A DNA stretch of 64,000 nucleotides from Candidatus Bipolaricaulota bacterium (lineage in GTDB: Bacteria; Bipolaricaulota; Bipolaricaulia; RBG-16-55-9). The stretch is from the NCBI GenBank assembly GCA_026982655.1, contig JALSGO010000083.1, positions 30 through 64,029 on the forward strand, read 5' to 3'. This document shows positions 36,246 through 61,486 of the stretch, one piece after another. Position 1 is the stretch's first letter, and each line of letters begins with the position of its first letter. The notes under the pieces are model-generated. The model ran no database searches, was not told where the DNA came from, and saw only the letters and a list, made by a program, of their open reading frames with translations. Made by a program: the position numbers and the translations under genes.

Positions 36246-38663
36246 ATGGGGTGGCTGGACGGCCTGCTGCGCCATCGTGGGCTCGTGCTGGGGGCGGCTT
36301 TGCTGCTCACCGTTCCGGCGCTCCTGTCTCTCAGTCGATTGGAGTCCCAGGACACCTACGATGCTTGGTTCCCCCCGGACGACCCGGCGTATCGCTTCTA
36401 TCGGGAGTTCCAGCGGCGGTTTGAGAACGACATGTTCATCGTGGTGGCCTATCGAGACGAGACCCTCTTCACCCGGGAGGGGCTGGCGTTCCTCGCGGAG
36501 CTCACCGCCCGTCTTGCGGAGCTCCCCTACGTGCGGGAGGTGACCAGCCTCACGAACGTCGAGCACGTCCGGGGGGAAGAGCAGGCGCTCATCGTCGAAC
36601 CCCTCGTCCCCGATCCGGAGCGCCTCGATCCCGACGTCGTCCGGCAACGGGCCCTCTCGCGCCCCCTCTACCGCGGGCTGCTGATCTCCGAGGACGGGAC
36701 GACGACCGCGGTCGTCGCCGAACTCGACCGGATCGCCTCCATGGACGAGGAGGCCGCTCTGGTGGGGGCCCTCAAGGACCTCCTGCGCACGCTGGAGGTC
36801 CGAACGGGCAAGTCCTTCTACATCGGGGGCTATCCCGTCCTCGACGTCGAGATCATGCAGGCTTCCGAGCGGGATATCCGGACGTTCATCCCCTTGACCG
36901 TCGGGGCCATCTTCCTCGTATTGTGGGGGGTCTTCCGCCGACCGTCGCTGGCCGCCCTGGCGTTCGTGTCCGTCTCGCTGGCGCTGGCTTGGACCTTCGG
37001 GCTGTACGCCGGCCTGGGTCTTAAGTACAGCATGATGCTGAGCATCCTGCCCACGATCATCCTCGCCATCGGGATTGCGGATGCGGTACACATCTTGGTC
37101 CACTACTACGAGGAGCTCGCCCGGGGGCGGCCGCAGCGGGAGGCCCTCCGTCAGACCCTACGAAAGATGCTCCGCCCCTGTCTGTTCACGACGCTGACGA
37201 CCGGAGCCGGGTTCATCTCGTTCTTGAGCAGCGATATCCCCGTGGTGCGGCTGACGGGGCTCTTTGCCGCGGTGGGCATCGGGCTTGCGTTCGTGCTCAC
37301 GGTGCTCGTGCTGCCCGCAGCCGTCTCGTTTTTCCGCCCGCCGCACGGGACGGCCCGGCGACGGTCTCAGGGCACGTTCGCTCGGGCCTTGGAGGGGCTG
37401 ACCCGAACGACCCTGGCCCACCCGCGCGCCGTGCTCCTGGGGGCCGGGATCGTGCTCGTCTTCGGCCTGTACGGGATCTCCCGCTTGGAAGCCGAGACGC
37501 TGGGCCTGGAGTGGCTGCGCGACGACCACCCCCTCCAGCAGAGCTATCGCTTCATCGAGGAGAACCTCACCGGGCTGTACAACCTCGAGCTCATCGTCGA
37601 GGGCGAACGGGACGCGCTCCGCTCCCCCGAGATGCTCCGCCGGATCGAGGAACTCAGTGCGTTTGCGCTCCAACAGCCGGGCGTGCGCAAGGCGATCTCC
37701 GTGGTCGACTACGTCAAAGAGATCCACCGGGCGCTCCGCGGGGGAGATCCCCGGTACTACACGATCCCGGACACGGCCCGCGACGTCGCGCAGGCGTTGT
37801 TGCTCTACGAGTTCTCCGGGGGACGCGAGCTGCGCGAGATCGTAAGCGGCGACTACAGCGCCGGACGACTCACCCTGCTGCTGGATGCCCTCTCCAGCCG
37901 GGAGTACACCGAGCTCAACCGACGCATCCTCGAGCGCGCCGAGACGTTGGACTTCCCTCGGCCCGTGCAGGCAACCGGTGCAGTGGTCCTGGTCGAGGCG
38001 ATGCTCAAGAAGCTCACCCTCAGCCAGGTCCGGAGCTTGGGGTTGGCTTTGGCCCTGATCACCTTGCTTATGATCGCCCTGTTGCGCTCCTGGAAGTTGG
38101 GGCTGCTCAGCTTGATCCCCAACGGGCTGCCGATCCTGCTGATGTTTGCGACCATGGGCCTGCTCTCCATCCCCCTGGACGCGGCGACGTCCACGGTCGC
38201 GGGGATGGCTTTAGGGATCGCCGTGGACGACACGATCCACTTCTTGACCCGCTTCCGACGCGAACTGAACGTGACGGGCGACTATCGCCGGGCGCTCACG
38301 CAGACGGCCCGGACGGTCGGCCAGGCGATCGTGTTCACGTCCGTGATCCTGCTGGCCGGCTTCAGCGTGCTGTTGCTGGGCAGCTTCAAGGGAACGGTGT
38401 ATATGGGGTTGCTCGTCGGGCTCACGATGCTCTTCGCGCTCGTAGGGGATTTGGTGCTCCTACCCGCGCTGCTCTGGGTCCTCAAGCCCCTCCCTGTGTC
38501 CGCAGCTGCTTCGACCCCGGCTCCGGCTCCGATGGCGGACGATGGCCGATCAGCTTCCGACCAGAGGAGGTTGAGGGAGGTCATGGACGACGCCCCCCGG
38601 GTGCAGGGTACGCTTATGCGTGGCCGGGACGAGGAAACAGGAGCCCGCGAAGCCGGCAGGTGA
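36246..38663 (+). CDS. RND-superfamily / MMPL-type exporter (HAE3/HpnN-like), paralog 1
   Basis: 805 aa, two 6-TM bundles with periplasmic loops; N-terminal LSRLESQDTYDAWFPPDDPAY...VREVTSLTNV pattern shared by the three paralogs. Confidence 0.8.
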   Translation: MGWLDGLLRHRGLVLGAALLLTVPALLSLSRLESQDTYDAWFPPDDPAYRFYREFQRRFENDMFIVVAYRDETLFTREGLAFLAELTARLAELPYVREVTSLTNVEHVRGEEQALIVEPLVPDPERLDPDVVRQRALSRPLYRGLLISEDGTTTAVVAELDRIASMDEEAALVGALKDLLRTLEVRTGKSFYIGGYPVLDVEIMQASERDIRTFIPLTVGAIFLVLWGVFRRPSLAALAFVSVSLALAWTFGLYAGLGLKYSMMLSILPTIILAIGIADAVHILVHYYEELARGRPQREALRQTLRKMLRPCLFTTLTTGAGFISFLSSDIPVVRLTGLFAAVGIGLAFVLTVLVLPAAVSFFRPPHGTARRRSQGTFARALEGLTRTTLAHPRAVLLGAGIVLVFGLYGISRLEAETLGLEWLRDDHPLQQSYRFIEENLTGLYNLELIVEGERDALRSPEMLRRIEELSAFALQQPGVRKAISVVDYVKEIHRALRGGDPRYYTIPDTARDVAQALLLYEFSGGRELREIVSGDYSAGRLTLLLDALSSREYTELNRRILERAETLDFPRPVQATGAVVLVEAMLKKLTLSQVRSLGLALALITLLMIALLRSWKLGLLSLIPNGLPILLMFATMGLLSIPLDAATSTVAGMALGIAVDDTIHFLTRFRRELNVTGDYRRALTQTARTVGQAIVFTSVILLAGFSVLLLGSFKGTVYMGLLVGLTMLFALVGDLVLLPALLWVLKPLPVSAAASTPAPAPMADDGRSASDQRRLREVMDDAPRVQGTLMRGRDEETGAREAGR

Positions 38664-38722
38664 GCGGCCTGCTCTGCCGGACGAAGCCATTCGGAAGCGA
38701 GAGGAAGGGAGGAAAGGAACTC

Positions 38723-39373
38723 ATGAACCCGCAGGAACGATGGAACGATGCTCTGACGCCGGAGAAGGAACCGACCGAGGGAGCTCTCTCGACGCCGCCC
38801 CCGGACGGCGCGTCCGAGGGGACCGGAGAGGGGCGGTCCCCTAAGGGGCGAACCGTGGGGATCGCCCTGATCCTCGCCGTGGTCGTGGGGATCGGCATCG
38901 GGTACTCGCTGTATTCCTTGCGGGCCGAGAGGGTGTCCGGGCTGGCGTCCACGGGGAGGGAGGTAGACCGGGGCCTCGGCGGCGGCATGCCGGCGATCGT
39001 GGTGGCCCCGCTGCTTAGGGATCTCGGGGAGGTGAGCGTCCAAGGGGGGACGGTGACCACCTTCTTCACCGTGCGCAATCCCGGGGACGGGGTGCTGGTC
39101 ATCACCGACATGGAGACTTCCTGTATGTGCACGGAGGTCGCTTTGATCGTGGACGGCGTGGAAGGCCCTCGACTCGGGATGCGCGGCCACGGTCCGCGGC
39201 CCGAGTGGTCGGCCCGGCTGAACCCGGGCGAGGAGGCGACCCTTAAGGTCTACTACGACCCCACGGTACACGAGGAGCTACGCGGACCGGTCACCCGCGT
39301 GGTGCGGGTTCACACGAACGTCCCCACCCGTCCCTACGTGGACATCTTGATCGATCTGGTGCAAACGGACTGA
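38723..39373 (+). CDS. DUF1573-domain secreted/anchored protein (variant motif SCMCT)
   Basis: N-terminal TM; VSVQGGTVTTFFTVRNPGDGVLVITDMETSCMCTEV...LNPGEEATLKVYYDP fits the DUF1573 consensus (F.F.N.G..PL.I..V..SCGCT ... PG....I.V.F). Confidence 0.55.
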   Translation: MNPQERWNDALTPEKEPTEGALSTPPPDGASEGTGEGRSPKGRTVGIALILAVVVGIGIGYSLYSLRAERVSGLASTGREVDRGLGGGMPAIVVAPLLRDLGEVSVQGGTVTTFFTVRNPGDGVLVITDMETSCMCTEVALIVDGVEGPRLGMRGHGPRPEWSARLNPGEEATLKVYYDPTVHEELRGPVTRVVRVHTNVPTRPYVDILIDLVQTD

Positions 39374-39424
39374 CTCCCGTGGGCAGACCGAAGGCTACAC
39401 GACAATCGGGGAGGGAATGCCAAG

Positions 39425-40000
39425 GTGATGAACGGGGAATCGAGGGACAAGGACCAAGGTCAGAATACGGAGATGCACGCGATCCGCCGCCGGGCGGCCT
39501 TCTTGAGCCGAGGCGGAGTGAGCCTGCCCCTCCTGATCATCGGGGTCCTCCTGGCCCTGGGGACGACTGCGGGCCTGGGGTATTTGCGTCTGGCGGGCCC
39601 ACCGGCGGCAGGCCCTCCGCGCATCGAGGTCACGCCGGAGCTCATCGAGTTCGGAGAGATCTCCCCCACCGAGAAGGCGGTCGTGGAGTACCGTGTGCGA
39701 AACGCCGGGGGAAGCCCGTTGGAGATCACCCGCGTGAGCACCTCGTGTGGGTGCACCACCGCCGAGGTCGGCAAGACGACGCTCCTCCCCGGCGAGACGA
39801 CTCCGTTGCGCGTCACCTTCGACCCCCAAGCGATGCGGGCCGAAGGGCTCAACGAGGAGGACATCTACCGGATCATCTTCCTAAGGAGCAACGACCCCGA
39901 GCGGCCGGAGGTTACCGTCGAGCTTCGCGGTCGCGTCCTGCCGTCGGACTCGGACTCGAACTCGAACTCGGAGCCGGAGTCTGCCGTCGAGGGGAGGTAA
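39425..40000 (+). CDS. DUF1573-domain protein (canonical SCGCTT motif) with a C-terminal Ser/Asp-rich tail
   Basis: EFGEISPTEKAVVEYRVRNAGGSPLEITRVSTSCGCTTAEV...LLPGETTPLRVTFDP. Confidence 0.65.
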   Translation: MMNGESRDKDQGQNTEMHAIRRRAAFLSRGGVSLPLLIIGVLLALGTTAGLGYLRLAGPPAAGPPRIEVTPELIEFGEISPTEKAVVEYRVRNAGGSPLEITRVSTSCGCTTAEVGKTTLLPGETTPLRVTFDPQAMRAEGLNEEDIYRIIFLRSNDPERPEVTVELRGRVLPSDSDSNSNSEPESAVEGR

Positions 40001-43190: not shown

Positions 43191-44582
43191 ATGGGCGTAG
43201 ACTTGACGTTCCTCGGCGCCGCCGGGACGGTCACGGGCTCCAAGTATTGGCTCTCGGCGGGCGGCAAAAACTATCTCATCGACTGCGGGCTCTTCCAGGG
43301 ACCGGACGAGCTGGAGCAGCTCAACTGGGAACAGCTTCCCATCGCCCCCGCGGAGCTGGACGCCGTGGTGCTGACCCACGGGCACCTCGACCACTCGGGG
43401 TACCTCCCGCGGCTTGCGAAGAGGGGCTACTCCGGGCCGGTCTACGCCTCGGAGGCCACCTGCGCGCTGCTCGAGCTGCTTTTGCCCGACTCGGGATACC
43501 TGCAGGAGGAGCACGCGGGCTACGCCAACCGCAAGGGCTACTCCCGCCACAAGCCCGCGCTTCCGCTGTACACCTACGACCAAGCGCTCGAGTCCCTAAA
43601 GCTCTTACGGCCCGTGAAGCTCGCGGAGCCCTTCGCCGTAGACAAACACCTCACGGTCACGATGCGCCCGGCGGGCCACATCCTGGGCTCCGCGATCGTA
43701 GAGTGCGAGCTTGATAATAAAAAGATCGTCTTCTCCGGGGACCTGGGCCGCTACGATCAGGAAGTGATGAAATCCCCAGCGACGGTGACGCGGGCCGACT
43801 ATCTGCTGGTCGAGTCGACGTACGGCGATCGGGAGCACGGCGAGGACCCCATCGAAGATCAGCTGGCCCCCGTGGTGAACGCCGCTGTCGAGCGCGGCGG
43901 GGCGCTTCTCATCCCGAGCTTCGCCGTGGGCCGCACCCAGCACGTCCTCTACTACCTGCGAAAGCTCCAAGACCAAAAGCGCATCCCCGAGGTGCCCATC
44001 TACGTGGACAGCCCGATGGCCATCGACGCGACGGCGATCTACTGCCGCTTCGGAGATGAGCTCAACCTCAACGTCAACCTGCTGATGGACGACGAAGCCT
44101 GCCCGCTGCGCTGCCGCGACACGCGCTTTACGCGGACGGTCCCCGAGTCGAAGCGGCTCAACGACGCGCCGGGGCCTCTTGTGATCCTCTCCGCGAGCGG
44201 GATGTGCACCGGCGGTCGGATCCTCCACCACCTGAAGCACCGCCTGCCCGACCCCAAGAACACCGTGCTCTTCGTGGGCTACCAGGCCCAAGGCACCCGG
44301 GGCCGCAGGCTCCTCGAGGGAGCCGACGAGATCAGAATTCACGGGATGACCGTCCCGGTGCGGGCGGAGATCGCCCAGATCGACGGCCTCTCCGCCCACG
44401 GAGACGCCCGGGAGCTGATGCGCTGGCTCTCCGGGTTCGAGCGGCCTCCCGAACAGACGTTCCTCGTCCACGGGGAGCCGCACGCCTCCCAAGCGCTGGA
44501 GGAGCGCATTCGGAAGGAGCTGGGCTGGGCGACCCACCGGCCCCGCTACGGCGAGACCGTCTCCTTGGAGGGCAGGGGATGA
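43191..44582 (+). CDS. MBL-fold metallo-hydrolase with beta-CASP domain (RNA-metabolising, RNase J/CPSF-like)
   Basis: VLTHGHLDHSGYLP (HxHxDH), beta-CASP motifs, 463 aa. Confidence 0.8.
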   Translation: MGVDLTFLGAAGTVTGSKYWLSAGGKNYLIDCGLFQGPDELEQLNWEQLPIAPAELDAVVLTHGHLDHSGYLPRLAKRGYSGPVYASEATCALLELLLPDSGYLQEEHAGYANRKGYSRHKPALPLYTYDQALESLKLLRPVKLAEPFAVDKHLTVTMRPAGHILGSAIVECELDNKKIVFSGDLGRYDQEVMKSPATVTRADYLLVESTYGDREHGEDPIEDQLAPVVNAAVERGGALLIPSFAVGRTQHVLYYLRKLQDQKRIPEVPIYVDSPMAIDATAIYCRFGDELNLNVNLLMDDEACPLRCRDTRFTRTVPESKRLNDAPGPLVILSASGMCTGGRILHHLKHRLPDPKNTVLFVGYQAQGTRGRRLLEGADEIRIHGMTVPVRAEIAQIDGLSAHGDARELMRWLSGFERPPEQTFLVHGEPHASQALEERIRKELGWATHRPRYGETVSLEGRG

Positions 44583-45304
44583 TCCGCTACGCGCTCTTCG
44601 ACTTGGACGACACGCTCTATCCCCCGGCGGCGGGGCTCATGGAGGCCCTCAGCCGCCGCTTTACGCAGTGCATCGCCGAGGAGCTGGGCATCTCCCTCGA
44701 ACAAGCCGAGGCCCTGCGGCGCGAGTACGGCAAGCGCTACGGCTCGACCACGCGGGGGCTCGCCCTGCATCACCACGTGGACATCGGGGGATTTTTGGCC
44801 AAGGTCCACGACCTGCCCATCGAGGAGTATCTGCAGCCCGACCCCGAGCTGGGGTGTTTGTTGGACTGCATCGACGCGCAGAGGTGCATCTTCACCAACG
44901 CGCCGGAGGCCTACGCCCGGCGGGTGTTAGACGTCCTGGGCGTCGCGGATCGCTTCTGTCGGGTCTTCGCGGTCGAGTTCTCGGGTTATAGGGGCAAGCC
45001 CGACCCCCTCGTCTACGAGCGGGTGGTCGCCGAGCTGGGCGCTTCCGACCCGGAGATCGTGATGCTCGACGACGTGCGGGCCAACCTCCTCCCCGCCGCG
45101 CAGAGGGGCTGGACGACCGTCTGGGTCAACGGGCGGGGGAAGCCCGCCGACCCTCAAGACCTCGACGGGATCTCCTATGCGGTGGGCGACCTCTGGGAGG
45201 TGGCCCGCGTCTTCCGCGAGATCGGGCTCCTCGACGAGGCCCACCACGAGGAGTGGAACCGCTGCCTCCTCCGGTGCCCGCTGGGCCGGAGACGGGCTGG
45301 GTGA
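44579..45304 (+). CDS. HAD-superfamily hydrolase (pyrimidine 5'-nucleotidase-like)
   Basis: ALFDLDDTLY (motif I DxDxT), ...FTNAP..., ...MLDDVRANL...; ATGA overlap with the upstream gene. Confidence 0.75.
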   Translation: MIRYALFDLDDTLYPPAAGLMEALSRRFTQCIAEELGISLEQAEALRREYGKRYGSTTRGLALHHHVDIGGFLAKVHDLPIEEYLQPDPELGCLLDCIDAQRCIFTNAPEAYARRVLDVLGVADRFCRVFAVEFSGYRGKPDPLVYERVVAELGASDPEIVMLDDVRANLLPAAQRGWTTVWVNGRGKPADPQDLDGISYAVGDLWEVARVFREIGLLDEAHHEEWNRCLLRCPLGRRRAG

Positions 45305-45344: not shown

Positions 45345-45374
45345 TTGATCCCACCCCACGGGGGGTGGGATAAT
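45345..45374 (+). promoter_or_regulatory. Promoter TTGATC - 18 nt - GATAAT whose spacer is the perfect palindrome ATCCCACCCC-acgg-GGGGTGGGAT (CsoR-type operator candidate, site B; palindrome 45348..45371)
   Basis: Read from sequence; the operator occupies the -35/-10 spacer, a classic repressor position; 35 nt upstream of the cytochrome b start. Confidence 0.65.
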
Positions 45375-48309: not shown

Positions 48310-48334
48310 CCCACCCCCTCTGGGGTGGAATAAT
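48306..48334 (+). promoter_or_regulatory. Promoter TTGACC - 17 nt - AATAAT containing the near-palindrome GACCCACCCC-ctct-GGGGTGGAAT (CsoR-type operator candidate, site C)
   Basis: Core arms match 7/8; the -35 overlaps the stop codon of the upstream oxidoreductase gene. Confidence 0.5.
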
Positions 48335-50159: not shown

Positions 50160-50480
50160 GTGAACAACCATCATGCGGGAGGCGGCAAGCCCTGCCACGT
50201 CGAGCGGCTGGAGAAAGAGGTGGACATGGAGGCGCTGCGCTCCACCCGGGTCAGCATCCTGGCGGTGACGGGGATGGGGTGTCCCAACTGTGCCCTGCGG
50301 GTGCACAACGCGCTCCTCGCCCTCCCCGGCGTCCATCGGGTGGACGTGGAGCTGGAGGCCGAGCGGGCGATCGTCTACTGGGACCCGACCGCCCTGCAGC
50401 CGGAGAGGCTGATCGAGGCGGTCTCCCAGGCTGCGGCGGGGACCCCTCACGACTACCGGGCGTACTTCGTGAAGCCGTAG
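50160..50480 (+). CDS. copZ: Heavy-metal-associated (HMA) domain copper chaperone, CopZ-like, with a His-rich N-terminal tail
   Basis: GTG start after AGGAGAAAGGAGG; NNHHAGGGKPCH tail; VTGMGCPNCALRV (MxCxxC). Confidence 0.7.
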   Translation: MNNHHAGGGKPCHVERLEKEVDMEALRSTRVSILAVTGMGCPNCALRVHNALLALPGVHRVDVELEAERAIVYWDPTALQPERLIEAVSQAAAGTPHDYRAYFVKP

Positions 50481-52541: not shown

Positions 52542-52590
52542 GGAGGGCCGGACTTGACAACCCTCCCCGGATGGGGTACAGTGAGACCAT

Positions 52591-52616
52591 ATCCCACCCC
52601 AGGTGGGGTGGATAAG
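52591..52616 (+). promoter_or_regulatory. Near-palindrome ATCCCACCCC-aggt-GGGGTGGAT overlapping a GATAAG -10-like hexamer (CsoR-type operator candidate, site D)
   Basis: Right arm lacks one G relative to a perfect repeat; immediately upstream of the RND paralog 2 start. Confidence 0.5.
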
Positions 52617-52627
52617 GGGTGAAGCGA

Positions 52628-55573
52628 ATGGCCCGAGGGCCGGACTTCCTGATACGTTGGCGCGTGCCGCTGCTGGTCGCCGTCCTGGTGGCCACCGCGC
52701 TCTTGGGCGCGGCGGTCATGGGAGCCAAGCTCAACGCCGACTTCTCCACGTATCTTTCCCAAGACAGCCCGCTCGTCCGGGAGTTCAACCGCGTCGGCGA
52801 GGTCTTCAAGGCCAACTACGTCGGCATGGTCCTCGTCCGGACCGAGGATCTGTTCACCCCCGAGAACCTCAGGCTGCTGGATCGCCTGACCCGAGCGTAT
52901 AAGTCCATCGAGGGCGTCGACTCGGTGACCAGCCTCACCAACGCCGTCGACTTCCGGCGGGCCGACGGCGGCCTGGTTGTGGGAAAACTCCTCGAGGGCA
53001 AGCCCCTCCCGACGGCGCCCGAGGAGCTGGAGAGGTTCAAGCGCTACGTGCTCTCCAAGGAGATGTACGTCGGCGCGTTGGTCAACGCCAAGGGCACCAC
53101 CGCCGTGATCCTGGTGCGCCTGCTTCCCAAGGTGAATCACTTCAAGGTCGCCGGGCAGATCGACCAAGTCACCCAGGAGATCGCGCCCAATGCAGAAAAC
53201 ATCTACTACGGCGGGATGCCCTTCCTCATCTACTCCATGACCGGGCTCATCCTCGACAACCTCTTCTTCCTGGTGCCGCTGATCATCCTGTTGCTCGTGG
53301 GGGTGCTGGAGCTGGGTTTCCGCCGCCTGGGCGGGGTGCTCGCCCCCCTGACCGTGGTGCTGCTCGCCGTGGTCTGGACGATGGGGATCCTGGCGCTCCT
53401 GGGCCGCCCGATCGACCTTCTGACCGGGATCGTCCCCATCATCCTCATCGCGATGGGCTCGGCGGACGGGATCCACTTCATGCGGCGCTTCTACGAGGCG
53501 CGGGCCGCCGGAGCCGAGCGCCGCGAGGCCGTGAAAATCACAATGAGGGAGATGGGCACGCCGATCGTCTTTACGTCCATCACGACCATGATCGGGTTCG
53601 CCTCGCTGGCCATCTCGAACTTCGACATCATCCGGACGTTCGGCTGGGCCACCGCGCTGGGGATCTTCCTGGCGCTGGTCGTCACCCTGATCGTGCTCCC
53701 CGCCGGACTGTCCTTTGGCCGGGAGCGGGCCTCCGTGCCTGCCGAGACGGACAACAGCGGGAGGCCGCGCAGCGTCCGGGGAGGGAGCCGGGCGATGGCC
53801 GCCCTGGGCGGGGGGATCCACCGGCGTCCGGGCGCGATCGCGCTCCTGACGGTGGGGGTGATCGCGCTGGCCGCGGTGGGGATCCCCCGCATCGTGGTGA
53901 ACGTGGACTGGTCGCTCTGTCTGGCACGGGGCAGCAAGCCGTACTTGGCGGAGATGCTGCTGCGCCGGGAGTTCGGCGGCTCCCTGCCCCTGCTCGTGTC
54001 CGTGAAGGGCGACGTCAAGGACCCGGCGACGCTGGAGACGATGCGGGCCGTGGAGCGCCACCTCGACGCGCTGCCCGAGGTGAGCGAGGCCGAGTCGATA
54101 GCGTCGGTGCTGGCGGAGATGAACTGGACGCTCAACGGGCGCTTCGCCGTGCCCACCGAGCGGGCTCAAGTCAACAACTTGTGGTTCCTGCTCCAGGGAC
54201 AAGACGTGCTCGATCAGATGGTCCGCTCGGACAACCAAGAGGCGCTGGTGCAGGCGAAGGTGGCCTCGCTGGGCACGGCGGTGATCAGCCGGGTGGTCGA
54301 GGACGTGAACGCCTTCTTGAGCCGCCTGCCCCAGAAGTTGGTCGTCGTGGACGCCGCCCAAGCGCCCCCGGATGCTCAACAGGCGCTGAGGGAACTCCAA
54401 GCTCAGCAAGTGAAAGAGGCTCTGGCTCAAGACCTGCGGGCCAAAGGCCTTTCGGTTGAACCCGCGGCGCTCGAAGCTGTTGTTGAGGCAGCGCAGAGCT
54501 GGACCCCCGGCGAACCCGACTACGCGGCGCTCGGCGAAGCCATTGAGAAATATTTGCTGAGCCCCGAGTCCGAGGTGCCGTTCGACGACCCTGCACAGGC
54601 CGCGACGATAGCCGAGTCGATCACCACAGCGCTCAGCGAGCGAGGCGGACGGCCATTGAGTGTCTCTGAGTTAGAAGCGTTGCTGCGCCCCCAGGTCGAG
54701 ACGTCCTACCCCGAGGACGTGGCCTGGCTGGCAGAGGCGTTAGTTTATCGCGTCGATGAGTTTTTAGATGCCCGTCGCGTGGAGGCGGCTTACGCGCAGC
54801 TGGCCGCCCAGCTGCCCCCGGAGGCGCGCTCCAACACGGATCTTGCGAAGAAGCTGCGCGGCGACCTTTGGGGGCTGACGACTGCGACGCTGGCGCTCGG
54901 TCCCCAGCAGTACGAGTCCCTGCAGGCCCAATATGGTCTGGACCTCGCGCGGACGGTGACCCTGGCCGCCGAGCCCTCGGGCCTAGCCCCGGTGCTGGAT
55001 CAGATGGAGAAGGAGCTGCTCCCCACCCAGATCGAGAGCACGGCGCTGGCCTTGTTGGCCGTGACGCTCTTGCTGATTTTGGTGTTCCGCTCGCTGCGGG
55101 CGGGGCTTTTGGGGATCGTCCCCGTGGGCCTGACCATTCTGGTCAATTTCGCAGTGTTAGGCTACTTCGGCATCGGCCTGGACTCGTTCACCGCGATGAT
55201 CGCCAGCATCACCATCGGCCTGGGGATCGACTACGCGATCCACTTCACCCACCGCTTCCGGAAGGAGTTCGAGCGCTCCGGCGACGAGCGGACGGCCCTC
55301 ATCACCACGTTGCAGACGACGGGCGTGGCGATCCTCATCAATTCGTTTTCGGTGGGCGCGGGGTTCGCCGTGCTGCTCTTGGCCGGCGGCCAGCACATCC
55401 GGCTCTTGGGAGGCCTTACGGCAATAGCGCTCCTGGTGAGCGCGCTCTTCACCCTGGTCGTGCTCCCGGCGCTCACGCTCTTGTGGAAGCCGCGCTACTT
55501 TCAGACCCCCGTCGTCGTGGAGCCGAAGCTGCGCCCTGAGCCCGAAGCCGAGAGGGGAGTTCAAAGCGCGTGA
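52628..55573 (+). CDS. RND-superfamily / MMPL-type exporter, paralog 2 (984 aa, enlarged periplasmic domain)
   Basis: Same N-terminal pattern and twin 6-TM bundles as paralog 1; ATG 52628 preferred over GTG 52619 (RBS AAGGGG). Confidence 0.8.
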   Translation: MARGPDFLIRWRVPLLVAVLVATALLGAAVMGAKLNADFSTYLSQDSPLVREFNRVGEVFKANYVGMVLVRTEDLFTPENLRLLDRLTRAYKSIEGVDSVTSLTNAVDFRRADGGLVVGKLLEGKPLPTAPEELERFKRYVLSKEMYVGALVNAKGTTAVILVRLLPKVNHFKVAGQIDQVTQEIAPNAENIYYGGMPFLIYSMTGLILDNLFFLVPLIILLLVGVLELGFRRLGGVLAPLTVVLLAVVWTMGILALLGRPIDLLTGIVPIILIAMGSADGIHFMRRFYEARAAGAERREAVKITMREMGTPIVFTSITTMIGFASLAISNFDIIRTFGWATALGIFLALVVTLIVLPAGLSFGRERASVPAETDNSGRPRSVRGGSRAMAALGGGIHRRPGAIALLTVGVIALAAVGIPRIVVNVDWSLCLARGSKPYLAEMLLRREFGGSLPLLVSVKGDVKDPATLETMRAVERHLDALPEVSEAESIASVLAEMNWTLNGRFAVPTERAQVNNLWFLLQGQDVLDQMVRSDNQEALVQAKVASLGTAVISRVVEDVNAFLSRLPQKLVVVDAAQAPPDAQQALRELQAQQVKEALAQDLRAKGLSVEPAALEAVVEAAQSWTPGEPDYAALGEAIEKYLLSPESEVPFDDPAQAATIAESITTALSERGGRPLSVSELEALLRPQVETSYPEDVAWLAEALVYRVDEFLDARRVEAAYAQLAAQLPPEARSNTDLAKKLRGDLWGLTTATLALGPQQYESLQAQYGLDLARTVTLAAEPSGLAPVLDQMEKELLPTQIESTALALLAVTLLLILVFRSLRAGLLGIVPVGLTILVNFAVLGYFGIGLDSFTAMIASITIGLGIDYAIHFTHRFRKEFERSGDERTALITTLQTTGVAILINSFSVGAGFAVLLLAGGQHIRLLGGLTAIALLVSALFTLVVLPALTLLWKPRYFQTPVVVEPKLRPEPEAERGVQSA

Positions 55574-55624: not shown

Positions 55625-56407
55625 ATGAAGCGTAGTGGAAGTAGAACGAGAACGGTGATCCTCGGACTGACGGTGACGTTGCTCCTGGCGGTCGGCGCTT
55701 GGGCGATCACGGGCGACGAGGTGCTGCAGAGGTCTCAAGAGGCGATGCGGCCCGGCCAGGACGCGACGATCACGGAACGGATGACGATCGCCAAGCCCGA
55801 CGGCCAGACGGACGTGCTGGAGCTCAAGATGTACATGAAGGGGGAGAAGACGCTGATCCGCGTCCTCGCCCCGGAGGACTTCGCGGGCATTGGGCTGTTG
55901 ATCCTGCCCCAGGAGGACGGCGGCGAGGAGATCTGGCTCTATCTTCCGGCCTTCCGGGACGTGAAGCAGATCGTGGCCGAATCCTTGAGCGAGGGCTTCG
56001 TCGGCTCGGACTTCGCCTACGAAGATCTCACGGTGCGCTACACCTCCAAGTGGGACGTGACCTCCATGAGCGAGGAGGAAGGGCAATACGTCCTGACGCT
56101 GGCTCCCAAGCCCGAGGCCCAGCTCAGTTACAGCGGGGCGCGCATGTGGGTGGACCAGGAGACGTTCCTGCCCACGCGGGCGGAGTTCGACCGGGAGGGA
56201 GAGCTGCTCAAGGTGCTGACCCTCTCGGAAGTGCAGGACTTCCCCAGCGTCGCGGACCCCGAGACGAGCTACCCCACCCCGACGCGGATCGAGATGGCCA
56301 ACGTGAAGACGGGGAGCCGGACCCTCATCGAGCTTTTGGAGGTCGAGTACGACACCGGGCTCTCGGACGACTTCTTCACCGTACGCAACCTCAAGCGGGG
56401 CGAATAA
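55625..56407 (+). CDS. Outer-membrane lipoprotein-sorting (LolA-like) domain protein, partner of the preceding RND exporter
   Basis: Signal peptide; EEIWLYLPAFRDVKQI and GSDFAYEDL motifs shared with the paralog at 60626; possible TTCGTC-17-TACAAT promoter upstream. Confidence 0.65.
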   Translation: MKRSGSRTRTVILGLTVTLLLAVGAWAITGDEVLQRSQEAMRPGQDATITERMTIAKPDGQTDVLELKMYMKGEKTLIRVLAPEDFAGIGLLILPQEDGGEEIWLYLPAFRDVKQIVAESLSEGFVGSDFAYEDLTVRYTSKWDVTSMSEEEGQYVLTLAPKPEAQLSYSGARMWVDQETFLPTRAEFDREGELLKVLTLSEVQDFPSVADPETSYPTPTRIEMANVKTGSRTLIELLEVEYDTGLSDDFFTVRNLKRGE

Positions 56408-56460: not shown

Positions 56461-57798
56461 ATGGGAATGGCGCAAGCGACGGCGACGGCAGATCGCACGG
56501 AAGCCCAAGTGCGAGCGGTTTTAGACCGCCTGCTCGAGGCCATCCGCCCGAGGGAGTTCGCCGTGCGACTCTGGAACGGGGAGGTCATCGAGCCCGACCC
56601 CGGCCATCCGGCCCGCTTTACGCTCGTACTTAACCACCCGGGCGCGCTGGGGCGGATGCTCTGGCCGCCCTCGGACCTCACGATAGGAGAAGCCTACATC
56701 CGGGGGGACTTCGACGTCGAAGGAGATCTCATCGCCGCCTTCTCGCTGCGGGAGCACTTCACCCGCCCGCCGTTCCGCCTTACGGAGATGCTGCGCATGG
56801 TCCGCGTCCTGCGCCGAGCGGCCCGGACGGCCCCTCCCCTCCAGCCCGATCGAGGGCCCGCGCGCCTGCGCGGGGCGCGCCACTCCAAGGAGCGGGATCG
56901 GGCCGCCGTCCGCTACCACTACGACGTGGGCAACGACTTCTACGCCCTGTGGCTCGACCGCAACATGGTCTACTCCTGCGCGTATTTTGAGACGGGCACC
57001 GAAGATATTGACACAGCCCAGGAAGCCAAACTGGACTACATCTGCCGCAAGCTGCGCCTTCAGCCGGGAGAACGGCTGTTGGACATCGGCTGCGGCTGGG
57101 GCGGACTCCTGATGCACGCGGCCCAGCACTACGGCGTCGAGGCCGTCGGCATCACGCTAAGCCCCCCGCAAGCCGAATGGGCCCGGGAGCGCATCCGCGA
57201 GCGGGGGCTCGCCGACCGCTGCCGGGTGGAGGTCGCCGACTATCGCGACTTCGACGAGGGCCCCTTTGACAAGCTGGTGAGCGTCGGGATGTTCGAGCAC
57301 GTGGGCGCGAAGATGCTCCCCGTCTACTTCCAAAAGGCCTGGTCGCTGCTTAAGCCCGGCGGGGTTTTTCTCAATCATGGGATTACGCTGGGCCCGGGCC
57401 CGCGCGACGAGCCGAGCTGGTGGGGACGCACGCTCTTTAAGCAGGGGCTGTTCATCCAGCGATACGTCTTCCCCGACGGCGAGCTGGAGCCGATCCACGA
57501 GTCGCTCCAGGCCGCCGGTGAGGTGGGCTTTGAACTTAGGGATGTGGAGTCGCTGCGCGAGCACTACGCGCTCACCCTGCGCCGCTGGGTCCAGCGCCTG
57601 GAGGCCCGCCACGACGAGGCCGTCCGCGCCGCGGGCGAGGCCGTTTATCGCATCTGGCGACTGTTCATGGCCGGATCGGCGTATCACTTCGAGATCGGGA
57701 GGCTCAACGTCTACCAGGCGCTCTTCGTCAAGCCCGATCGCGGGCGGAGCGGTTTGCCTCTGACCCGAGCCGACTGGTATGCTCGCCCTAGTTCCTAG
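56461..57798 (+). CDS. cfa: Cyclopropane-fatty-acyl-phospholipid synthase family methyltransferase
   Basis: VGNDFYALWLDRNMVYSCAYF...LLDIGCGWGGL...SVGMFEHVG CFA-synthase signature. Confidence 0.85.
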   Translation: MGMAQATATADRTEAQVRAVLDRLLEAIRPREFAVRLWNGEVIEPDPGHPARFTLVLNHPGALGRMLWPPSDLTIGEAYIRGDFDVEGDLIAAFSLREHFTRPPFRLTEMLRMVRVLRRAARTAPPLQPDRGPARLRGARHSKERDRAAVRYHYDVGNDFYALWLDRNMVYSCAYFETGTEDIDTAQEAKLDYICRKLRLQPGERLLDIGCGWGGLLMHAAQHYGVEAVGITLSPPQAEWARERIRERGLADRCRVEVADYRDFDEGPFDKLVSVGMFEHVGAKMLPVYFQKAWSLLKPGGVFLNHGITLGPGPRDEPSWWGRTLFKQGLFIQRYVFPDGELEPIHESLQAAGEVGFELRDVESLREHYALTLRRWVQRLEARHDEAVRAAGEAVYRIWRLFMAGSAYHFEIGRLNVYQALFVKPDRGRSGLPLTRADWYARPSS

Positions 57799-57815
57799 GG
57801 AAAGGGGGTGATACG

Positions 57816-58022
57816 ATGAACGAGTCGTTCACCGATCCCGTCTGCGGGATGACGATCGATAAGAGCCAAGTCGCCGCGACCCTCGAGTACGGAGGGAAAA
57901 CGTACTACTTCTGCTCCCCCGGCTGCAAGGTCGCCTTCGAGCGCGAGCCCGAGAGGTATGCCGAGTCGGAGTCCAAGCCGGAGTCCTCGGAGGGGAGCGC
58001 TCCCGGGTCGTCCTCTCCTTGA
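57816..58022 (+). CDS. YHS (TRASH-like) domain small protein
   Basis: DPVCGMTIDKSQ...YYFCSPGCKVAFEREPERY, same domain as the N-terminus of the second CopA. Confidence 0.75.
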   Translation: MNESFTDPVCGMTIDKSQVAATLEYGGKTYYFCSPGCKVAFEREPERYAESESKPESSEGSAPGSSSP

Positions 58023-58060: not shown

Positions 58061-58106
58061 CCCGGACCGGCGGGGACCGAGGGACATCCCTCCCCGCCGG
58101 TCCGGG
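58061..58106 (+). other. Strong GC-rich stem-loop: 16-bp perfect inverted repeat CCCGGACCGGCGGGGA ... TCCCCGCCGGTCCGGG
   Basis: Read from sequence; lies between the YHS gene and RND paralog 3; no U-tract. Confidence 0.6.
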
Positions 58107-58188: not shown

Positions 58189-60585
58189 ATGTCGACGCGA
58201 TCGCTCAAGGAGGAGAATCCCTCGATCATGTACAAGAAATACGTGGAATGGGTGCTGAACCGCCCCAAACTCGTGCTCGCGCTGATCGCGCTGGTGACCC
58301 TGGGGTTCGCCGCGGGGCTCCCGCGCATCCAGACGGACACCGACCCCGAGAACATGCTCCGTCCCGACGCCCCCATCCGCGTCTACAACGACCAGGTCAA
58401 AGCTTGGTTCGACCTCCAAGACGTGCTCGTCTTAGGGATCGTCAACGACCAAGACCCCAACGGGGTCTTGAACGCCCAAACGCTGGGGAAGATCTACCGC
58501 ATCACCCAAGAGATCCTCAAGATCGAGGGCGTCGTCCGCCGCAACGTCTGGAGTTTTCCGACGACCAACCACATCCGGGTGCGGGGAGGCACCCTCGTCC
58601 AAGAGCGTTTGCTCAAGACCGATCGGCCCACGGATGCCGACATCGCCGCGCTCGCCCAGGCCCTCGACGGAAACCCCCTCTTCGAGCGCATTCTCATCTC
58701 GGACGACCGCACGTTGGCCGCCCTCTACATCCCCGTGGAGGACGACGTGGACGCGAAACCCATCACGGATCGCATTCAGGAGATCGTCCAAGCCGAGGGC
58801 GGGCCGGAGGAGTATTACCTCGGCGGACAGCGCGTCGCCGAGGACGTCTTCGGGGTGCTGATGTTCCAACAGATGCTGCTGCTCTCGCCCTTGGTGGCCC
58901 TCGTCATCTGGGTGGGCTTGTGGCTCATGTTTCGAAGGCTGCGCTTTGCGTTTGTCTTCTCCCCCTTGTTGATCGCCTTGGTCTCGGTGATCTGGACGAT
59001 GGGGCTCATGATCTGGCTCGGGATCCCCGTCCACATCATGAGCTCCATGGCCCCCGTGTTTCTGATGAGCATCGGCGTGGTCGACGGGATCCACATCCTC
59101 AGTGAGTTCGTCGATCAGTACCCTAAGAGCCGCAACCGCCGCCGAGCGATCCTCGACACCCTGGTGGCCCTCAAGCGGCCCCTGCTCTACACCTCGCTGA
59201 CCACCGCCGTCGGCTTTGCGTCTTTGTACTTCACGGACATCCCGCCCGTTAGGGTCTTCGGGGTGTTCGTGGCCTTCGGGATCCTGGCCGCCTGGGTGCT
59301 TACGATCACCATGGTCCCGGCGATCGTGATGGTCCTGCGCGAGCAGGATGCCAAGGAGCTCGCTGCCAAGGAGAACCGCCTGGCCCGCGGGCTCCAAGCC
59401 CTGGGACGCTTCAGCATCCGGCGCCGCCGGGCCGTGCTCGTCGGGGGCCTCCTCGCTTTGGCCGTCGCGGGCTTCGGGCTGACTCAAATTCACATCGACG
59501 ACAGCCCCGTCTGGTGGTTCAAGAAGGGCCAGCCCATCCGCGAGGCCACCGCTTTATTGAACGAGAAGCTGGGAGGGACTTCGCTCCTGTATGTCGTGCT
59601 CGAGGGGGAGAAGGGCACGATGAAAGAACCCGAGGTGCTGCGGTACCTCGAGGAACTCCAGCGGTATCTGGAAGAATCCCCGTTGGTGGGCAAGACGACC
59701 TCGCTGGCCGACGTCGTCAAACGCATCAACGAGGCCTGGAACGACGACGATCCTCGGTATCGCGTGATCCCCGACTCCCGCAGGGCCGTAGCTCAGTTCC
59801 TGCTGCTGTACCTCTCCTCGGGGGACCCCAGCGATCTACAAGACTTCGTGACCCATGGCACGGGCTACGACAAGGCCAACGTCATCGTACAGGTGAAGAG
59901 CCCCGGTTCGGCGGCCATGGAGCGGGTCGTAGCACGGGCGCAAGCCTTCGTAGAGGGGAATCCGCCGCCCCGGGGGGTGCGGGTGAGCTTCGCCGGGCCG
60001 GGGTACTTCAATGCGAAGTGGAACGAGGAGATGTTCCGCGGGATGATGCGCGCCGTGGCCGGGGCCACCCTCGTCGTGTGGTTGCTGCTGTCGCTCAACT
60101 TCCGCTCGATGCGTTGGGGGATCGTGGGGCTGCTCCCCTTAGGGTTTACGATCGTGTTCACCTACGGGATGCTGGCTTTGCTGGGGGTGCCCTTCACCAT
60201 GCCCATCGAGGTGATCTCGGCCCTCTCGCTGGGGATGGCCGTGGACTTCGCCATCCACTTCGTCCAACGCTTCCGCGAGCGCTACGCCGAGACTCAAGAC
60301 GTAGAGGGCTCCTTGAGGTGGACCATGGGCGGGCCCGGCGTGGCCATTTTGCGCAACGCCGTCATCCTGTTTGTGGGCTTTACGGTGCTGATCTTCGCGC
60401 CGCTTACGCCGTATATCACCGTGGGGGTCTTTATCGCGATCATCATGGCCCTAAGCTCGCTGACCACGCTCTTCTTCTTGCCCGCGCTCATACGGCAGTT
60501 TGCCCCCTGGCTGGTGGACCGGCCCGCGCGGGCGGCCGTCCCCGCGGCCGCTGAAGTGGAAGCGGAAGTGGAACCGAAAGCCTAA
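58189..60585 (+). CDS. RND-superfamily / MMPL-type exporter, paralog 3
   Basis: 798 aa; same architecture (...LPRIQTDTDPENMLRPDAPIRVYNDQVKAWF...). Confidence 0.8.
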   Translation: MSTRSLKEENPSIMYKKYVEWVLNRPKLVLALIALVTLGFAAGLPRIQTDTDPENMLRPDAPIRVYNDQVKAWFDLQDVLVLGIVNDQDPNGVLNAQTLGKIYRITQEILKIEGVVRRNVWSFPTTNHIRVRGGTLVQERLLKTDRPTDADIAALAQALDGNPLFERILISDDRTLAALYIPVEDDVDAKPITDRIQEIVQAEGGPEEYYLGGQRVAEDVFGVLMFQQMLLLSPLVALVIWVGLWLMFRRLRFAFVFSPLLIALVSVIWTMGLMIWLGIPVHIMSSMAPVFLMSIGVVDGIHILSEFVDQYPKSRNRRRAILDTLVALKRPLLYTSLTTAVGFASLYFTDIPPVRVFGVFVAFGILAAWVLTITMVPAIVMVLREQDAKELAAKENRLARGLQALGRFSIRRRRAVLVGGLLALAVAGFGLTQIHIDDSPVWWFKKGQPIREATALLNEKLGGTSLLYVVLEGEKGTMKEPEVLRYLEELQRYLEESPLVGKTTSLADVVKRINEAWNDDDPRYRVIPDSRRAVAQFLLLYLSSGDPSDLQDFVTHGTGYDKANVIVQVKSPGSAAMERVVARAQAFVEGNPPPRGVRVSFAGPGYFNAKWNEEMFRGMMRAVAGATLVVWLLLSLNFRSMRWGIVGLLPLGFTIVFTYGMLALLGVPFTMPIEVISALSLGMAVDFAIHFVQRFRERYAETQDVEGSLRWTMGGPGVAILRNAVILFVGFTVLIFAPLTPYITVGVFIAIIMALSSLTTLFFLPALIRQFAPWLVDRPARAAVPAAAEVEAEVEPKA

Positions 60586-60625
60586 TGGAGAGATTTTACA
60601 GAACCCCATAGGAGGTTGACCGACC

Positions 60626-61486
60626 ATGAGGCAGAGCACAAGCAACAGACTCCTCACGACCGGACGGACGTTGGGGCTCCTGGCCCTGGGGCTGCTCCTC
60701 ACGCTGGGGGCCTTCCCCGTGGTCCTCACGCAGGCCCAAGCGCAAGGTCCCTCGGCGGAGGAGATCATGCAACAGGCGAAGGACCGCTGGCAGGGCGAGG
60801 ATTTCACGTCGGCCGTGCGGCTTACGACCGCGGAGCCCGGCGGCGGGGAGACCGTCCTCGACGTCGACTTCAAGGCCAAGCTCATCGAGGAGAGCCGGGA
60901 CTCGGGTGCGTTCCGCTACAAGGTGTTGGCCCGCGTCACGGCCCCGGAGGACGTAGCGGGCTGGGCGGTCCTCATCTGGGAGCAGGAGTTCCCCACCCCG
61001 GACGACATCTGGCTCTACCTGCCGGCGCTCGAGTCCACGAAGAAGATCTCGCTGGAGAACTTCCGTAACCCGCTCTTTGGAAGCGAGTTCGTGTTCGAGG
61101 ACGTCATCGGGCGCGAGCCGGGGCTCGACACCCACGAACTCCTGCGGGAGGAGACCCTCAACGTCGGCGGCGAGGACCGCCCCGTCTGGGTGATTAAGAG
61201 CACGCCTCAGGACCCCGATCTGGCGGGCTTCGCCTACCGCATCACCTACGTGGACCGGGAGACGCTCTTGGAGCTCCGCATGGAGCTCTACAACGACACC
61301 GACGCGTTGATCAAGCTCTACCAAGCCGAGGAGGTGCGAGAGCTGCAGGGCATCCCCACGTGGGTTACGGCGACGGCGGAGAACCTCGAGACGGGTCGAG
61401 TCACCACCTTCGAGTTCCTCGAGCCGGTCTACAACACGGGCGTTCCGGACGAGATCTTCGACCCGGAGCGGTTGGGGCAGCCGTAA
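60626..61486 (+). CDS. Outer-membrane lipoprotein-sorting (LolA-like) domain protein, partner of RND paralog 3
   Basis: Signal peptide; DDIWLYLPALESTKKI and GSEFVFEDV motifs paralogous to the protein at 55625. Confidence 0.65.
   Translation: MRQSTSNRLLTTGRTLGLLALGLLLTLGAFPVVLTQAQAQGPSAEEIMQQAKDRWQGEDFTSAVRLTTAEPGGGETVLDVDFKAKLIEESRDSGAFRYKVLARVTAPEDVAGWAVLIWEQEFPTPDDIWLYLPALESTKKISLENFRNPLFGSEFVFEDVIGREPGLDTHELLREETLNVGGEDRPVWVIKSTPQDPDLAGFAYRITYVDRETLLELRMELYNDTDALIKLYQAEEVRELQGIPTWVTATAENLETGRVTTFEFLEPVYNTGVPDEIFDPERLGQP

Follow-up and report, generated by a model that had tools for sequence, protein, structure and literature searches.

RND transporters of the HAE3 type that are encoded together with a periplasmic protein of the LolA superfamily have already been described for hydrocarbon tolerance, and their component families are known and routinely annotated. 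The AmeABCD system of Castellaniella defragrans, which provides monoterpene tolerance, comprises the HAE3 RND transporter AmeD, the LolA-superfamily protein AmeB (DUF1329), the beta-propeller protein AmeC and the outer-membrane protein AmeA (DUF1302) (PMC6394551). Genes for DUF1302, DUF1329, BNR and COG1033 RND proteins are cofit in mutant screens of Shewanella and Pseudomonas (10.1101/072470), and the MMPL and PF17131-type operons of Porphyromonas and Prevotella (PG1175-81) respond to iron depletion with an induction of 13- to more than 100-fold (PMC10434189). Here we analyse a stretch of 64,000 nucleotides from a Candidatus Bipolaricaulota bacterium (assembly GCA_026982655.1, contig JALSGO010000083.1, positions 30 to 64,029 of the forward strand; hereafter the window), in which three MMPL/HAE3-like RND transporters, RND1, RND2 and RND3, lie in a large copper-homeostasis cluster, the second and third each followed by a gene for a LolA-like protein.

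Pairs of a COG1033/MMPL RND transporter and a PF17131 protein form a very large family with thousands of homologs, almost none of which has an assigned function. No link between copper or CsoR and pairs of MMPL/COG1033 and LolA-like proteins was found in the literature searched, which is no proof of novelty. We tentatively propose, at a little short of an even chance, that three RND transporters of a lipid or hydrophobe class, each from a different subfamily, have been recruited into a CsoR copper regulon for remodelling or repair of the cell envelope. A role in envelope repair is plausible because in E. coli the acylation and trafficking of lipoproteins are blocked by copper (PMC6538781). Bipolaricaulota have an outer, toga-like membrane, as do Fraserbacteria and Thermotogae.

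Three RND subfamilies of the MMPL type

All three transporters match the Pfam family MMPL (PF03176) with 118.7-140.9 bits (cut-off 20.5) and the sterol-sensing domain (SSD) model PF12349 with 46.6-55.3 bits (cut-off 22.3); Patched-SSD is matched as well. Their hydropathy profiles follow a 1+5/1+5 order of transmembrane (TM) segments (TM1, large loop, TM2-6, TM7, large loop, TM8-12), and the Pfam scores and the topology of 12 TM segments with two extracytoplasmic loops agree in placing them among the MMPL/SSD-containing RND proteins. The top NCBIfam model for each is HAE3 (TIGR00921, TC 2.A.6.7), with 248.6, 265.7 and 247.7 bits for RND1, RND2 and RND3. A first-pass annotation of the window, made from the sequence alone, had described a "twin-SSD" architecture; the two repeats of six TM segments, each with a Gxx(x)D..H motif, are present in all three proteins, but the Pfam SSD model matches only the first half of each. 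The TM4-like and TM10-like helices each hold an Asp/His pair that does not vary among the three proteins (D279/H282 and D661/H665 in RND1).

The same annotation had read the three genes as paralogs. Their existence and shared MMPL topology hold, a recent duplication does not: the proteins are only 28-29% identical to one another and each has nearer relatives in other phyla (43-50% identity), which implies that three old subfamilies were assembled here without local duplication. The clade of RND1 is rare: about 14 of 5.8 billion proteins reach an identity of at least 42%. The RND2-type subfamily of 950-985 aa spans Balneolales, Calditrichota, Gemmatimonadota, Aminicenantes and even Bacillota, and the RND3-type subfamily, of about 760-790 aa, is very large. 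The open reading frame (ORF) of RND2 opens with a GTG at 52619; its likely start is the ATG at 52628, which is preceded by an AAGGGG Shine-Dalgarno sequence and gives a protein of the same length as the database entry P0203.

In RND2, the second periplasmic loop is enlarged by an insert of about 190 aa (about residues 580-770), and in the AlphaFold2 model of the protein (predicted local distance difference test, pLDDT, 87.7; predicted template-modelling score, pTM, 0.82) this insert is all-helical, with several short helices at a pLDDT around 90. The nearest structures in Foldseek searches with this model are MmpL5 and MmpL4, followed by HpnN, MmpL3 and NPC1-type proteins; AcrB and MexB rank far lower (AcrB TM-score 0.43-0.46). 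Export of lipids or lipoproteins is our best inference for what these transporters do. As a separate observation, RND2-type proteins have a single cysteine, Cys431 in RND2 (window about 53918-53920; motif DWSLCL), which is conserved in at least 90% of 46 RND2-type sequences and lies on the periplasmic side just after TM7; RND1 has one invariant cysteine (C312).

Predicted CsoR operators at the promoters of RND1 and RND2

The gene directly upstream of RND1 encodes a CsoR-family repressor with the Cys-His-Cys Cu(I) triad (YC...H..HC, aligned to C36/H61/C65 of the Mycobacterium tuberculosis protein), whose best PDB matches are the CsoR proteins of Thermus, Geobacillus and M. tuberculosis (E about 1e-18). 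Known CsoR operators are G-tract pseudopalindromes (PMC3902906), and the window has four copies of the palindrome CCACCCC-N4-GGGGTGG, all between genes and on the plus strand, against 0.02 expected by chance. Fold, ligands and predicted G-tract operators at promoters all point to a CsoR sensor with its own regulon.

Promoter A and the predicted operator A precede the gene string Rieske-CopA1-csoR-RND1-DUF1573, in which RND1 starts 7 nt past the csoR stop codon. The predicted operator D lies between the -10 element of promoter D, which is sigma-70-like, and the start of RND2, leaving 14 nt between its end and the ATG of RND2, so that the earlier placement of an operator directly ahead of the second transporter is borne out; promoters A and D have an identical -35 context (CTTGACAACCC). 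From RND2 through LolA-like 1 and the CMAS-family gene to the small YHS gene, the spacing is operon-like, with gaps of 51, 53 and 17 nt. Two further predicted operators, B and C, precede the cytochrome b group and the cupredoxin-2 group, each filling the spacer of promoter-like elements, and a half-site stands at 40045, ahead of YHS-CopA2.

Sites B and C have an extra upstream block, ACATGACGCAnnTCATT, in common. The predicted regulon is also unusually large, taking in the copA genes, cupredoxins and the Rieske protein, two cytochrome b-like proteins (best NCBIfam model ExtP, below cut-off), an FAD oxidoreductase and an 8-TM protein.

LolA-like partners and accompanying genes

The proteins encoded behind RND2 and RND3 both belong, by score and by the presence of a signal peptide, to the secreted LolA_like family PF17131, with PDB relatives 9tp6, 3bk5 and 4z48. 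Neither has a lipobox cysteine, and LolA-like 1 contains no Cys or His at all. They are 33% identical to each other and share the motif EEIWLYLPA or DDIWLYLPA, just as the first-pass annotation had reported. The sole match to canonical LolA or LolB is a sub-threshold one of a single protein to the model LolA3_fam (19 bits vs 83, E = 8e-4), and no LolCDE-type genes were found near the LolA-like genes. In every related locus with enough sequence, the RND and PF17131 genes are adjacent, and natural fusions of the two occur in both RND3-type (P0039, P0077, P0094) and RND2-type (P0231, P0262) proteins, so that the partnership of RND2 and RND3 with their LolA-like proteins is solid. A further protein, P0193, fuses an RND transporter to a BNR propeller.

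Between the two pairs lie a cyclopropane-fatty-acid- (CFA-) synthase-like gene and a small YHS gene, again as first described. The former encodes a CMAS-family lipid methyltransferase that depends on S-adenosylmethionine (SAM) and reaches 392 bits with the NCBIfam model CfaB (cut-off 650) and 250 bits with PRK11705 (cut-off 400). Other lipid enzymes stand near relatives of the transporters: PEMT/ICMT in loci L009, L010, L026 and L029 and patatin in L009 and L029. PmtA/UbiE-like methyltransferases occur near RND modules in the window, L011, L024 and L029. Downstream of LolA-like 2, a secreted propeller with a rhodanese domain is followed by such a methyltransferase; the propeller-rhodanese recurs beside RND3-type pairs and is possibly a third component.

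RND1 is instead followed by two DUF1573 genes, a pair that is kept after the RND1-type genes of L006 and L007. Together with a multi-TM protein that has a weak SfLAP match, the two form a trio that recurs in copper islands of Bipolaricaulota and Fraserbacteria (window 38723-40000 and 49267-50109; L004 15867-18076; L006 10863-13074). Because the trio of the Fraserbacteria locus L004 sits away from RND1-type genes, we read the DUF1573 proteins as components of the island, with a weaker claim to partner status than the LolA-like proteins; of the earlier proposal, the two genes stand, and the special partnership with RND1 is only tentative. The TSC-x-CT motif is invariant in both proteins, and DUF1573a adds a DGVEGP..MR.H insert (GMRGH in the Bipolaricaulota copies). 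Both are candidates for an extracytoplasmic thiol- or copper-binding module. Selenoprotein (UGC) forms of DUF1573 are known.

Linkage to copper genes in related loci

The copper context was assessed in about 20 independent loci, weighted to close relatives of the window; scans of genomes and of metagenomes with a four-sequence LolA-like alignment contributed seven loci per collection. RND1-type genes are accompanied by copper genes in all three loci at 60% identity or above (the window, L006 with 65% and L007 with 67%), RND2-type genes in four of four (the window, L009, L010 and L029) and RND3-type genes in five of 13 (the window, L004, L011, L016 and L024). Searches of plasmids with tblastn gave one informative match for RND3, in Ilyobacter, and no match for RND2.

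Several of these loci repeat the regulatory layout of the window. The same operator stands ahead of the operon Rieske-CopA-CsoR-RND1-type in L007, and in L009 (72% identity, Bipolaricaulia) it precedes an operon that ends in the RND2-type gene, with CopA, Rieske and YHS genes nearby. The RND2-type gene of L010 (48%) is flanked by genes for YHS, a YHS-HMA ATPase and cupredoxin, and in L029 (44%), from the cultured Aliifodinibius salipaludis, the pair lies beside an OmpR-type two-component system (copRS-like), a multicopper oxidase and CopB; a search for a CopR box there found only the 9-mer AAGCTTAAA in common, in AT-rich DNA. Among RND3-type loci, L011 (62%) has a multicopper oxidase, a plastocyanin-like protein, a CDF transporter and a YHS-ATPase nearby, L016 a multicopper-oxidase-like gene upstream, and L024 a YHS gene and a CsoR-type operator.

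In the copper island of L004 (58% identity, Fraserbacteria), the RND3-type and LolA genes form an operon with those of a response regulator and a histidine kinase. The GC-rich CsoR operator is absent from this low-GC locus. The tandem direct repeat CTCCATnAGnTCTCC (1368-1393, 6272-6286 and 8872-8897; five sites vs 0.53 expected) marks three promoters, those of copA, of a beta-propeller gene and of the RND-LolA operon, whose OmpR-type regulator probably binds to this repeat. As gene orders, types of copper gene and regulators differ between the loci, simple inheritance of one island is argued against.

A wider reading is possible, and we hold it with some reserve: HAE3-like RND and PF17131 pairs, chiefly of the RND2 type, may form an envelope-acting accessory arm of bacterial copper resistance that spans phyla and has gone unrecognised, with lineage-specific sensors (CsoR in Bipolaricaulota, two-component systems in Fraserbacteria and Balneolales) and with lipids, lipoproteins or lipophilic copper or sulfur adducts as cargo, not free metal.

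A possible envelope response to copper

Cu(I) would release CsoR from its G-tract operators, whereupon operon A (Rieske-CopA1-csoR-RND1-DUF1573a/b) would be transcribed and operon D, with RND2, LolA-like 1, the CFA-synthase-like gene and the YHS gene, would be switched on as well, possibly reading through to RND3 and LolA-like 2. With the proton-motive force (PMF) as driving energy, the transporters would draw a hydrophobic or amphiphilic envelope molecule, be it a lipid, a lipoprotein or a toxic lipophilic adduct, out of the cytoplasmic membrane. From RND2 and RND3 it would go to the soluble periplasmic LolA-like carrier, which in classical diderm relatives may hand it on to a DUF1302-like outer-membrane barrel. 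The co-encoded CMAS-family methyltransferase would alter acyl chains. The net effect would be remodelling or repair of the envelope under copper stress, complementing P1B ATPases, cupredoxins and a multicopper oxidase that act on the metal itself.

Several points weigh against this proposal. HAE3 is the best model for all three transporters, yet their scores stay under its curated cut-off of 351.9 bits, and HAE3-like is therefore the safe label. The invariant His and Met residues in the TM segments of RND3, with two MxxxM motifs, also fit a soft-metal or chalcogen substrate. Copper genes are missing around eight RND3-type loci (L002/3, L012, L013, L014, L018, L026, L027 and L028), and the RND1-type locus L008 (50% identity) has neither copper nor DUF1573 genes nearby. 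With a small sample biased to close relatives, part of the copper linkage could be inherited island structure. No operator was found in the 166-nt spacer upstream of RND3, and a strong GC-rich hairpin (101-nt fold of -59.2 kcal/mol, z = -4.3, no U-tract after it, no Rfam match), possibly a terminator, a processing site or a repeat element, parts RND3 from the upstream genes; copper control of RND3 in this genome is therefore at most tentative. The first-pass annotation had placed all three exporters inside the copper island, the second directly behind operator D, and proposed a copper-triggered remodelling or export of lipids or lipoproteins. This stands for the class of transporter, for the pairing with LolA-like proteins and for the predicted CsoR wiring of RND1 (csoR operon, operator A) and RND2 (operator D), and does not extend to copper control of RND3.

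Alternative explanations

The transporters might instead export Cu(I) or Ag(I) directly, with the LolA-like proteins as structural adaptors and not as lipid carriers, a reading that we regard as unlikely. It would fit the place of the genes in the predicted CsoR regulon and their recurrence beside copper genes, the nearly invariant juxtamembrane Cys431 of the RND2 type, the conserved CxC and GMRGH of DUF1573a and, in the RND3 subfamily, the invariant H282, M284, M287 and M293 with M225-x3-M229 at the start of TM2 and M615-x3-M619 at the start of TM8. These residues are kept across 113 RND3-type sequences down to 43% identity, M615 being 85% conserved in the distant set. They are equally invariant in 82 distant homologs (43-47% identity), of which the two examined (L026 and L027) lack copper genes, and they are absent from RND1 and RND2; a copper-clade signature is thereby ruled out, and the residues could be structural or bind a soft ligand. 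Nearly all conserved Met and His of the transporters sit in TM segments; a clade-specific cluster of Met, His or Cys in the periplasmic loops was looked for and none was found, nor is any of these three residues conserved in the LolA-like proteins.

Membership of the metal-exporting HME family (CusA/CzcA type) is itself ruled out. Against the model TIGR00914 (cut-off 701), RND1 and RND3 reach a negligible 24.7 and 24.0 bits and RND2 gives no match at E <= 0.001. At 798-805 aa, RND1 and RND3 lack the size of AcrB-like pumps, and RND2 attains its 981 aa only through the helical insert. No membrane fusion protein (MFP; HlyD) or outer-membrane factor (OMF; OEP) families are among the Pfam matches of the scanned likely genes of the window, and no CusA or CzcA entry is in the top 50 structure matches of the RND2 model, whose nearest folds are lipid and siderophore transporters. 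The first-pass view that these are not classic metal RND pumps is in this respect upheld. The island also already holds at least four P1B ATPases.

Similarly unlikely is the possibility that the RND3-LolA-like module, with the propeller-rhodanese and the methyltransferase, is mainly a system for reactive-sulfur or selenium stress or trafficking, which would export hydrophobic chalcogen species or shield the envelope and would stand in the island since copper and sulfide chemistry are coupled. Genes for sulfur or selenium trafficking and ArsR-type genes are indeed more regular neighbours of RND3-type modules than copper genes are. An ArsR-rhodanese fusion occurs in L013 and L024, in the former with a CoA-disulfide-reductase-like (CoADR-like) protein that bears a rhodanese domain; ArsR and DUF302 occur in L011 and L014 (DUF302 also in L018), rhodanese and methyltransferase in L011, and class-V aminotransferase and SelR in L002/3. 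L026 has ArsR, TauE, a YgaP-like TM protein, DsrE and AIRS, L027 has ArsR, DrsE_2 and a YgaP-like TM protein, and L028, from Ilyobacter polytropus, has selD-yedF-DUF3343. These neighbours, and the secreted rhodanese-propeller that comes after LolA-like 2 in the window, suggest a link of the RND3 subfamily to the handling of reactive sulfur or selenium. The link is one of association: RND3 is without any Cys, and no chalcogen-handling residue was identified in the RND or LolA-like proteins. Five RND3-type loci do have copper genes, the module and copA promoters of L004 have a motif in common, and RND1 and RND2 would be left unexplained.

Rather improbable, in our view, is a copper-induced back-up route in which the RND and LolA-like pairs ferry lipoproteins, perhaps mis-acylated ones, to the toga-type outer membrane. 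The LolA superfamily of the partners, the effect of copper on lipoproteins in E. coli (PMC6538781) and the toga-like membranes of Bipolaricaulota, Fraserbacteria and Thermotogae speak for it. The PF17131 proteins, however, are not LolA orthologs, as the faint match to the LolA3 model indicates, the partner encoded with them is an RND instead of an ABC transporter of the LolCDE type, small hydrophobes are the substrates of the characterised analog AmeABCD (PMC6394551), and the same modules occur in many non-copper contexts. The least probable reading, that the exporters are generic stress cargo hitch-hiking in the island with an operator that is incidental or serves neighbour genes only, would suit an island of mixed functions (cytochrome b, Rieske, beta-CASP, HAD, methyltransferases) and the RND3-type and distant RND1-type genes that often lie away from copper genes, but it is countered by the position of operator D between the -10 element and the RND2 start codon, the 7 nt between csoR and RND1, the operator-operon layouts kept in L007 and L009, and a linkage that recurs in other phyla with different gene orders, copper genes and regulators.

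The copper island

The closest named homologs of the RND genes of the window are from metagenome-assembled genomes (MAGs) of Candidatus Bipolaricaulia and Bipolaricaulota. The window has a G+C content of 66% and gave no Rfam matches. Housekeeping genes, among them those for an RpoD-like sigma factor and hrcA-dnaK-dnaJ, fill its first 27 kb or so; the very large copper-homeostasis cluster starts at about 28 kb, with nearly all genes on the plus strand (Table 1). It begins with an ABC peptide-type transporter, the Rieske protein, CopA1 and CsoR, followed by RND1 and the two DUF1573 proteins, by YHS-CopA2, a cupredoxin, a beta-CASP hydrolase and a HAD hydrolase, by cytochrome b and an FAD oxidoreductase, and by a second cupredoxin, the 8-TM protein, a CopZ-like HMA protein and a cytochrome b-like protein. 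RND2, LolA-like 1, the CMAS methyltransferase and the YHS protein come next, and RND3, LolA-like 2, the propeller-rhodanese and a methyltransferase close the series. In L001, a second assembly of this locus, a further copper P1B ATPase, a multicopper oxidase and another P-type ATPase come after these genes.

Some further features of the island may be recorded. The redundancy of P1B-type (copper) ATPases is striking, with at least four genes in about 45 kb (window 33191 and 40099; L001 6362-8596 and 11974-13082), of which two have YHS or HMA at the N-terminus, and the multicopper oxidase gene of L001 would lie just past the end of the window. The beta-CASP-HAD pair is also found upstream of the RND2-type gene in L009. 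At the junction between dnaK-dnaJ and the copper cluster, the minus strand carries a Rad52/Rad22-family recombinase gene and an uncharacterised ORF of 620 aa, which may mark the island boundary. The spacer between LolA-like 2 and the propeller-rhodanese contains a run of 39 G, which in L001 (3975-4035) is much shorter and interrupted; either the tract is hypervariable or it arose in the assembly.

Table 1. Positions of the transporter genes, their predicted control elements and neighbouring features in the window
Feature	Position	Strand	Details
Rad52/Rad22-family recombinase gene	26445-27191	-	
620-aa ORF	27077-28939	-	
Promoter A	32440-32445 and 32463-32468	+	TTGACA, 17 nt, TATCGT
Predicted operator A	32480-32501	+	TCCCACCCCACCGGGGGTGGGA
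CopA1	33191-35848	+	CopA-type P1B ATPase, two HMA domains; context gene of operon A
CsoR	35924-36238	+	copper-sensing repressor; PF02583, 84.7 bits
RND1	36246-38663	+	805 aa; MMPL/HAE3-like RND transporter, rare subfamily
DUF1573a	38723-39373	+	N-terminal TM anchor, Ig-like DUF1573 domain; SCMCT motif, conserved GMRGH insert
DUF1573b	39425-40000	+	TM anchor, DUF1573 domain; SCGCT motif
HAD hydrolase	44579-45304		likely gene; start overlaps beta-CASP stop by 4 nt
Predicted operator B	45349-45370	+	
Predicted operator C	48309-48330	+	
Multi-TM protein of DUF1573 trio	49267-50109		
CopZ-like HMA protein	50160-50480		likely gene; GMGCPNC motif
Promoter D	52554-52582	+	TTGACA-17-TACAGT
Predicted operator D	52591-52613	+	ATCCCACCCCAGGTGGGGTGGAT; core palindrome CCACCCCAGGTGGGGTGG at 52594-52611
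RND2	52628-55573	+	981 aa; MMPL/HAE3-like, widespread 950-985 aa subfamily
LolA-like 1	55625-56407	+	PF17131/TP_0789-like, 161.4 bits (cut-off 30)
CMAS-family methyltransferase	56461-57798	+	CFA-synthase-like; PF02353, 320 bits
Small YHS-domain protein	57816-58022	+	68 aa; Pfam YHS on identical L001 gene
GC-rich hairpin	58064-58103	+	13-bp outer stem; in 166-nt YHS-RND3 spacer
RND3	58189-60585	+	798 aa; MMPL/HAE3-like, large subfamily, no Cys
LolA-like 2	60626-61486	+	PF17131, 143.4 bits (cut-off 30)
39-G run	61504-61542		
Propeller-rhodanese	61682-63124	+	secreted YncE-like beta-propeller, C-terminal rhodanese domain
UbiE/PmtA-like SAM methyltransferase	63132-63890	+	recurs near RND2- and RND3-type modules

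Significance and comparison with known systems

If the recruitment of lipid-class transporters into the copper regulon is real, copper defence would have an envelope-directed component beyond efflux ATPases, Cus-type pumps and oxidases. A reproducible link to a copper sensor would then give the COG1033/MMPL and PF17131 family its first physiological handle, and a cultured carrier of an RND2-type pair exists in Aliifodinibius salipaludis. In the toga-bearing phyla Bipolaricaulota, Fraserbacteria and Thermotogae, such pairs are candidates for a role in carrying lipids or lipoproteins to the outer membrane.

With the CusCFBA and CzcCBA pumps the transporters of the window have in common the RND superfamily, a copper-resistance locus and a small periplasmic partner gene nearby. 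They differ in size (about 800 aa for RND1 and RND3 vs the 1,051 positions of TIGR00914) and in a partner of LolA-like fold without metal ligands, and they lack an MFP, an OMF and a periplasmic Met cluster. The LolCDE-LolA system likewise encodes a LolA-superfamily periplasmic carrier beside its inner-membrane extractor, but the extractor in the window is a predicted PMF-driven RND instead of an ABC transporter, PF17131 is a family separate from LolA, and no LolB equivalent is present here. Closer in gene content are the PG1175-81 operons, where an MMPL-family RND gene adjoins one for a PF17131-type protein; these also contain genes for ABC ATPases and a TetR regulator, and the signal to which they respond is iron or hemin, whereas control in the window is predicted to be by CsoR and copper.

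By fold, RND2 is nearest to MmpL4 and MmpL5 (which act with MmpS4/5), MmpL3 and HpnN, with Foldseek E-values of 1e-26 to 1e-18 and query-normalised TM-scores of 0.53-0.59 at an identity of only 13-16%. The 12-TM architecture with two small periplasmic domains is common to all of them. RND2 and MmpL4/5 both carry a periplasmic helical insertion, a coiled-coil hairpin in the latter and several short helices in the former. The substrates of the MmpL and HpnN transporters are lipids, siderophores and hopanoids, not metal ions. Unlike the MmpL systems, the pairs described here have a LolA-like protein in place of an MmpS-type partner, and the NCBIfam HpnN scores of the window transporters are far under the cut-off.

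AmeABCD differs from the pairs of the window in several parts. The partner here is a shorter PF17131 protein and not a full-length DUF1329, no DUF1302 gene is present, the propeller is YncE-like with a rhodanese domain and not of the Ycf48/BNR type, and the predicted control is by CsoR and copper, in place of the setting of terpene and hydrocarbon metabolism; the window thus holds an RND and PF17131 pair, with the propeller-rhodanese, and not the four-component cassette. The core is nevertheless alike: in AmeABCD and the cofit clusters, as in the window, a COG1033/HAE3-like RND of about 780 aa goes with a LolA-superfamily protein of the periplasm. The beta-propeller gene after RND3 and LolA-like 2 and the BNR propellers after the pair in L011 and L018 resemble AmeC in position, and a DUF1302 or DUF1302-like protein of about 415-450 aa follows the pair in the diderm relatives L010, L026, L027 and L029. 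These reference systems are inducible stress and tolerance modules for hydrophobic compounds.

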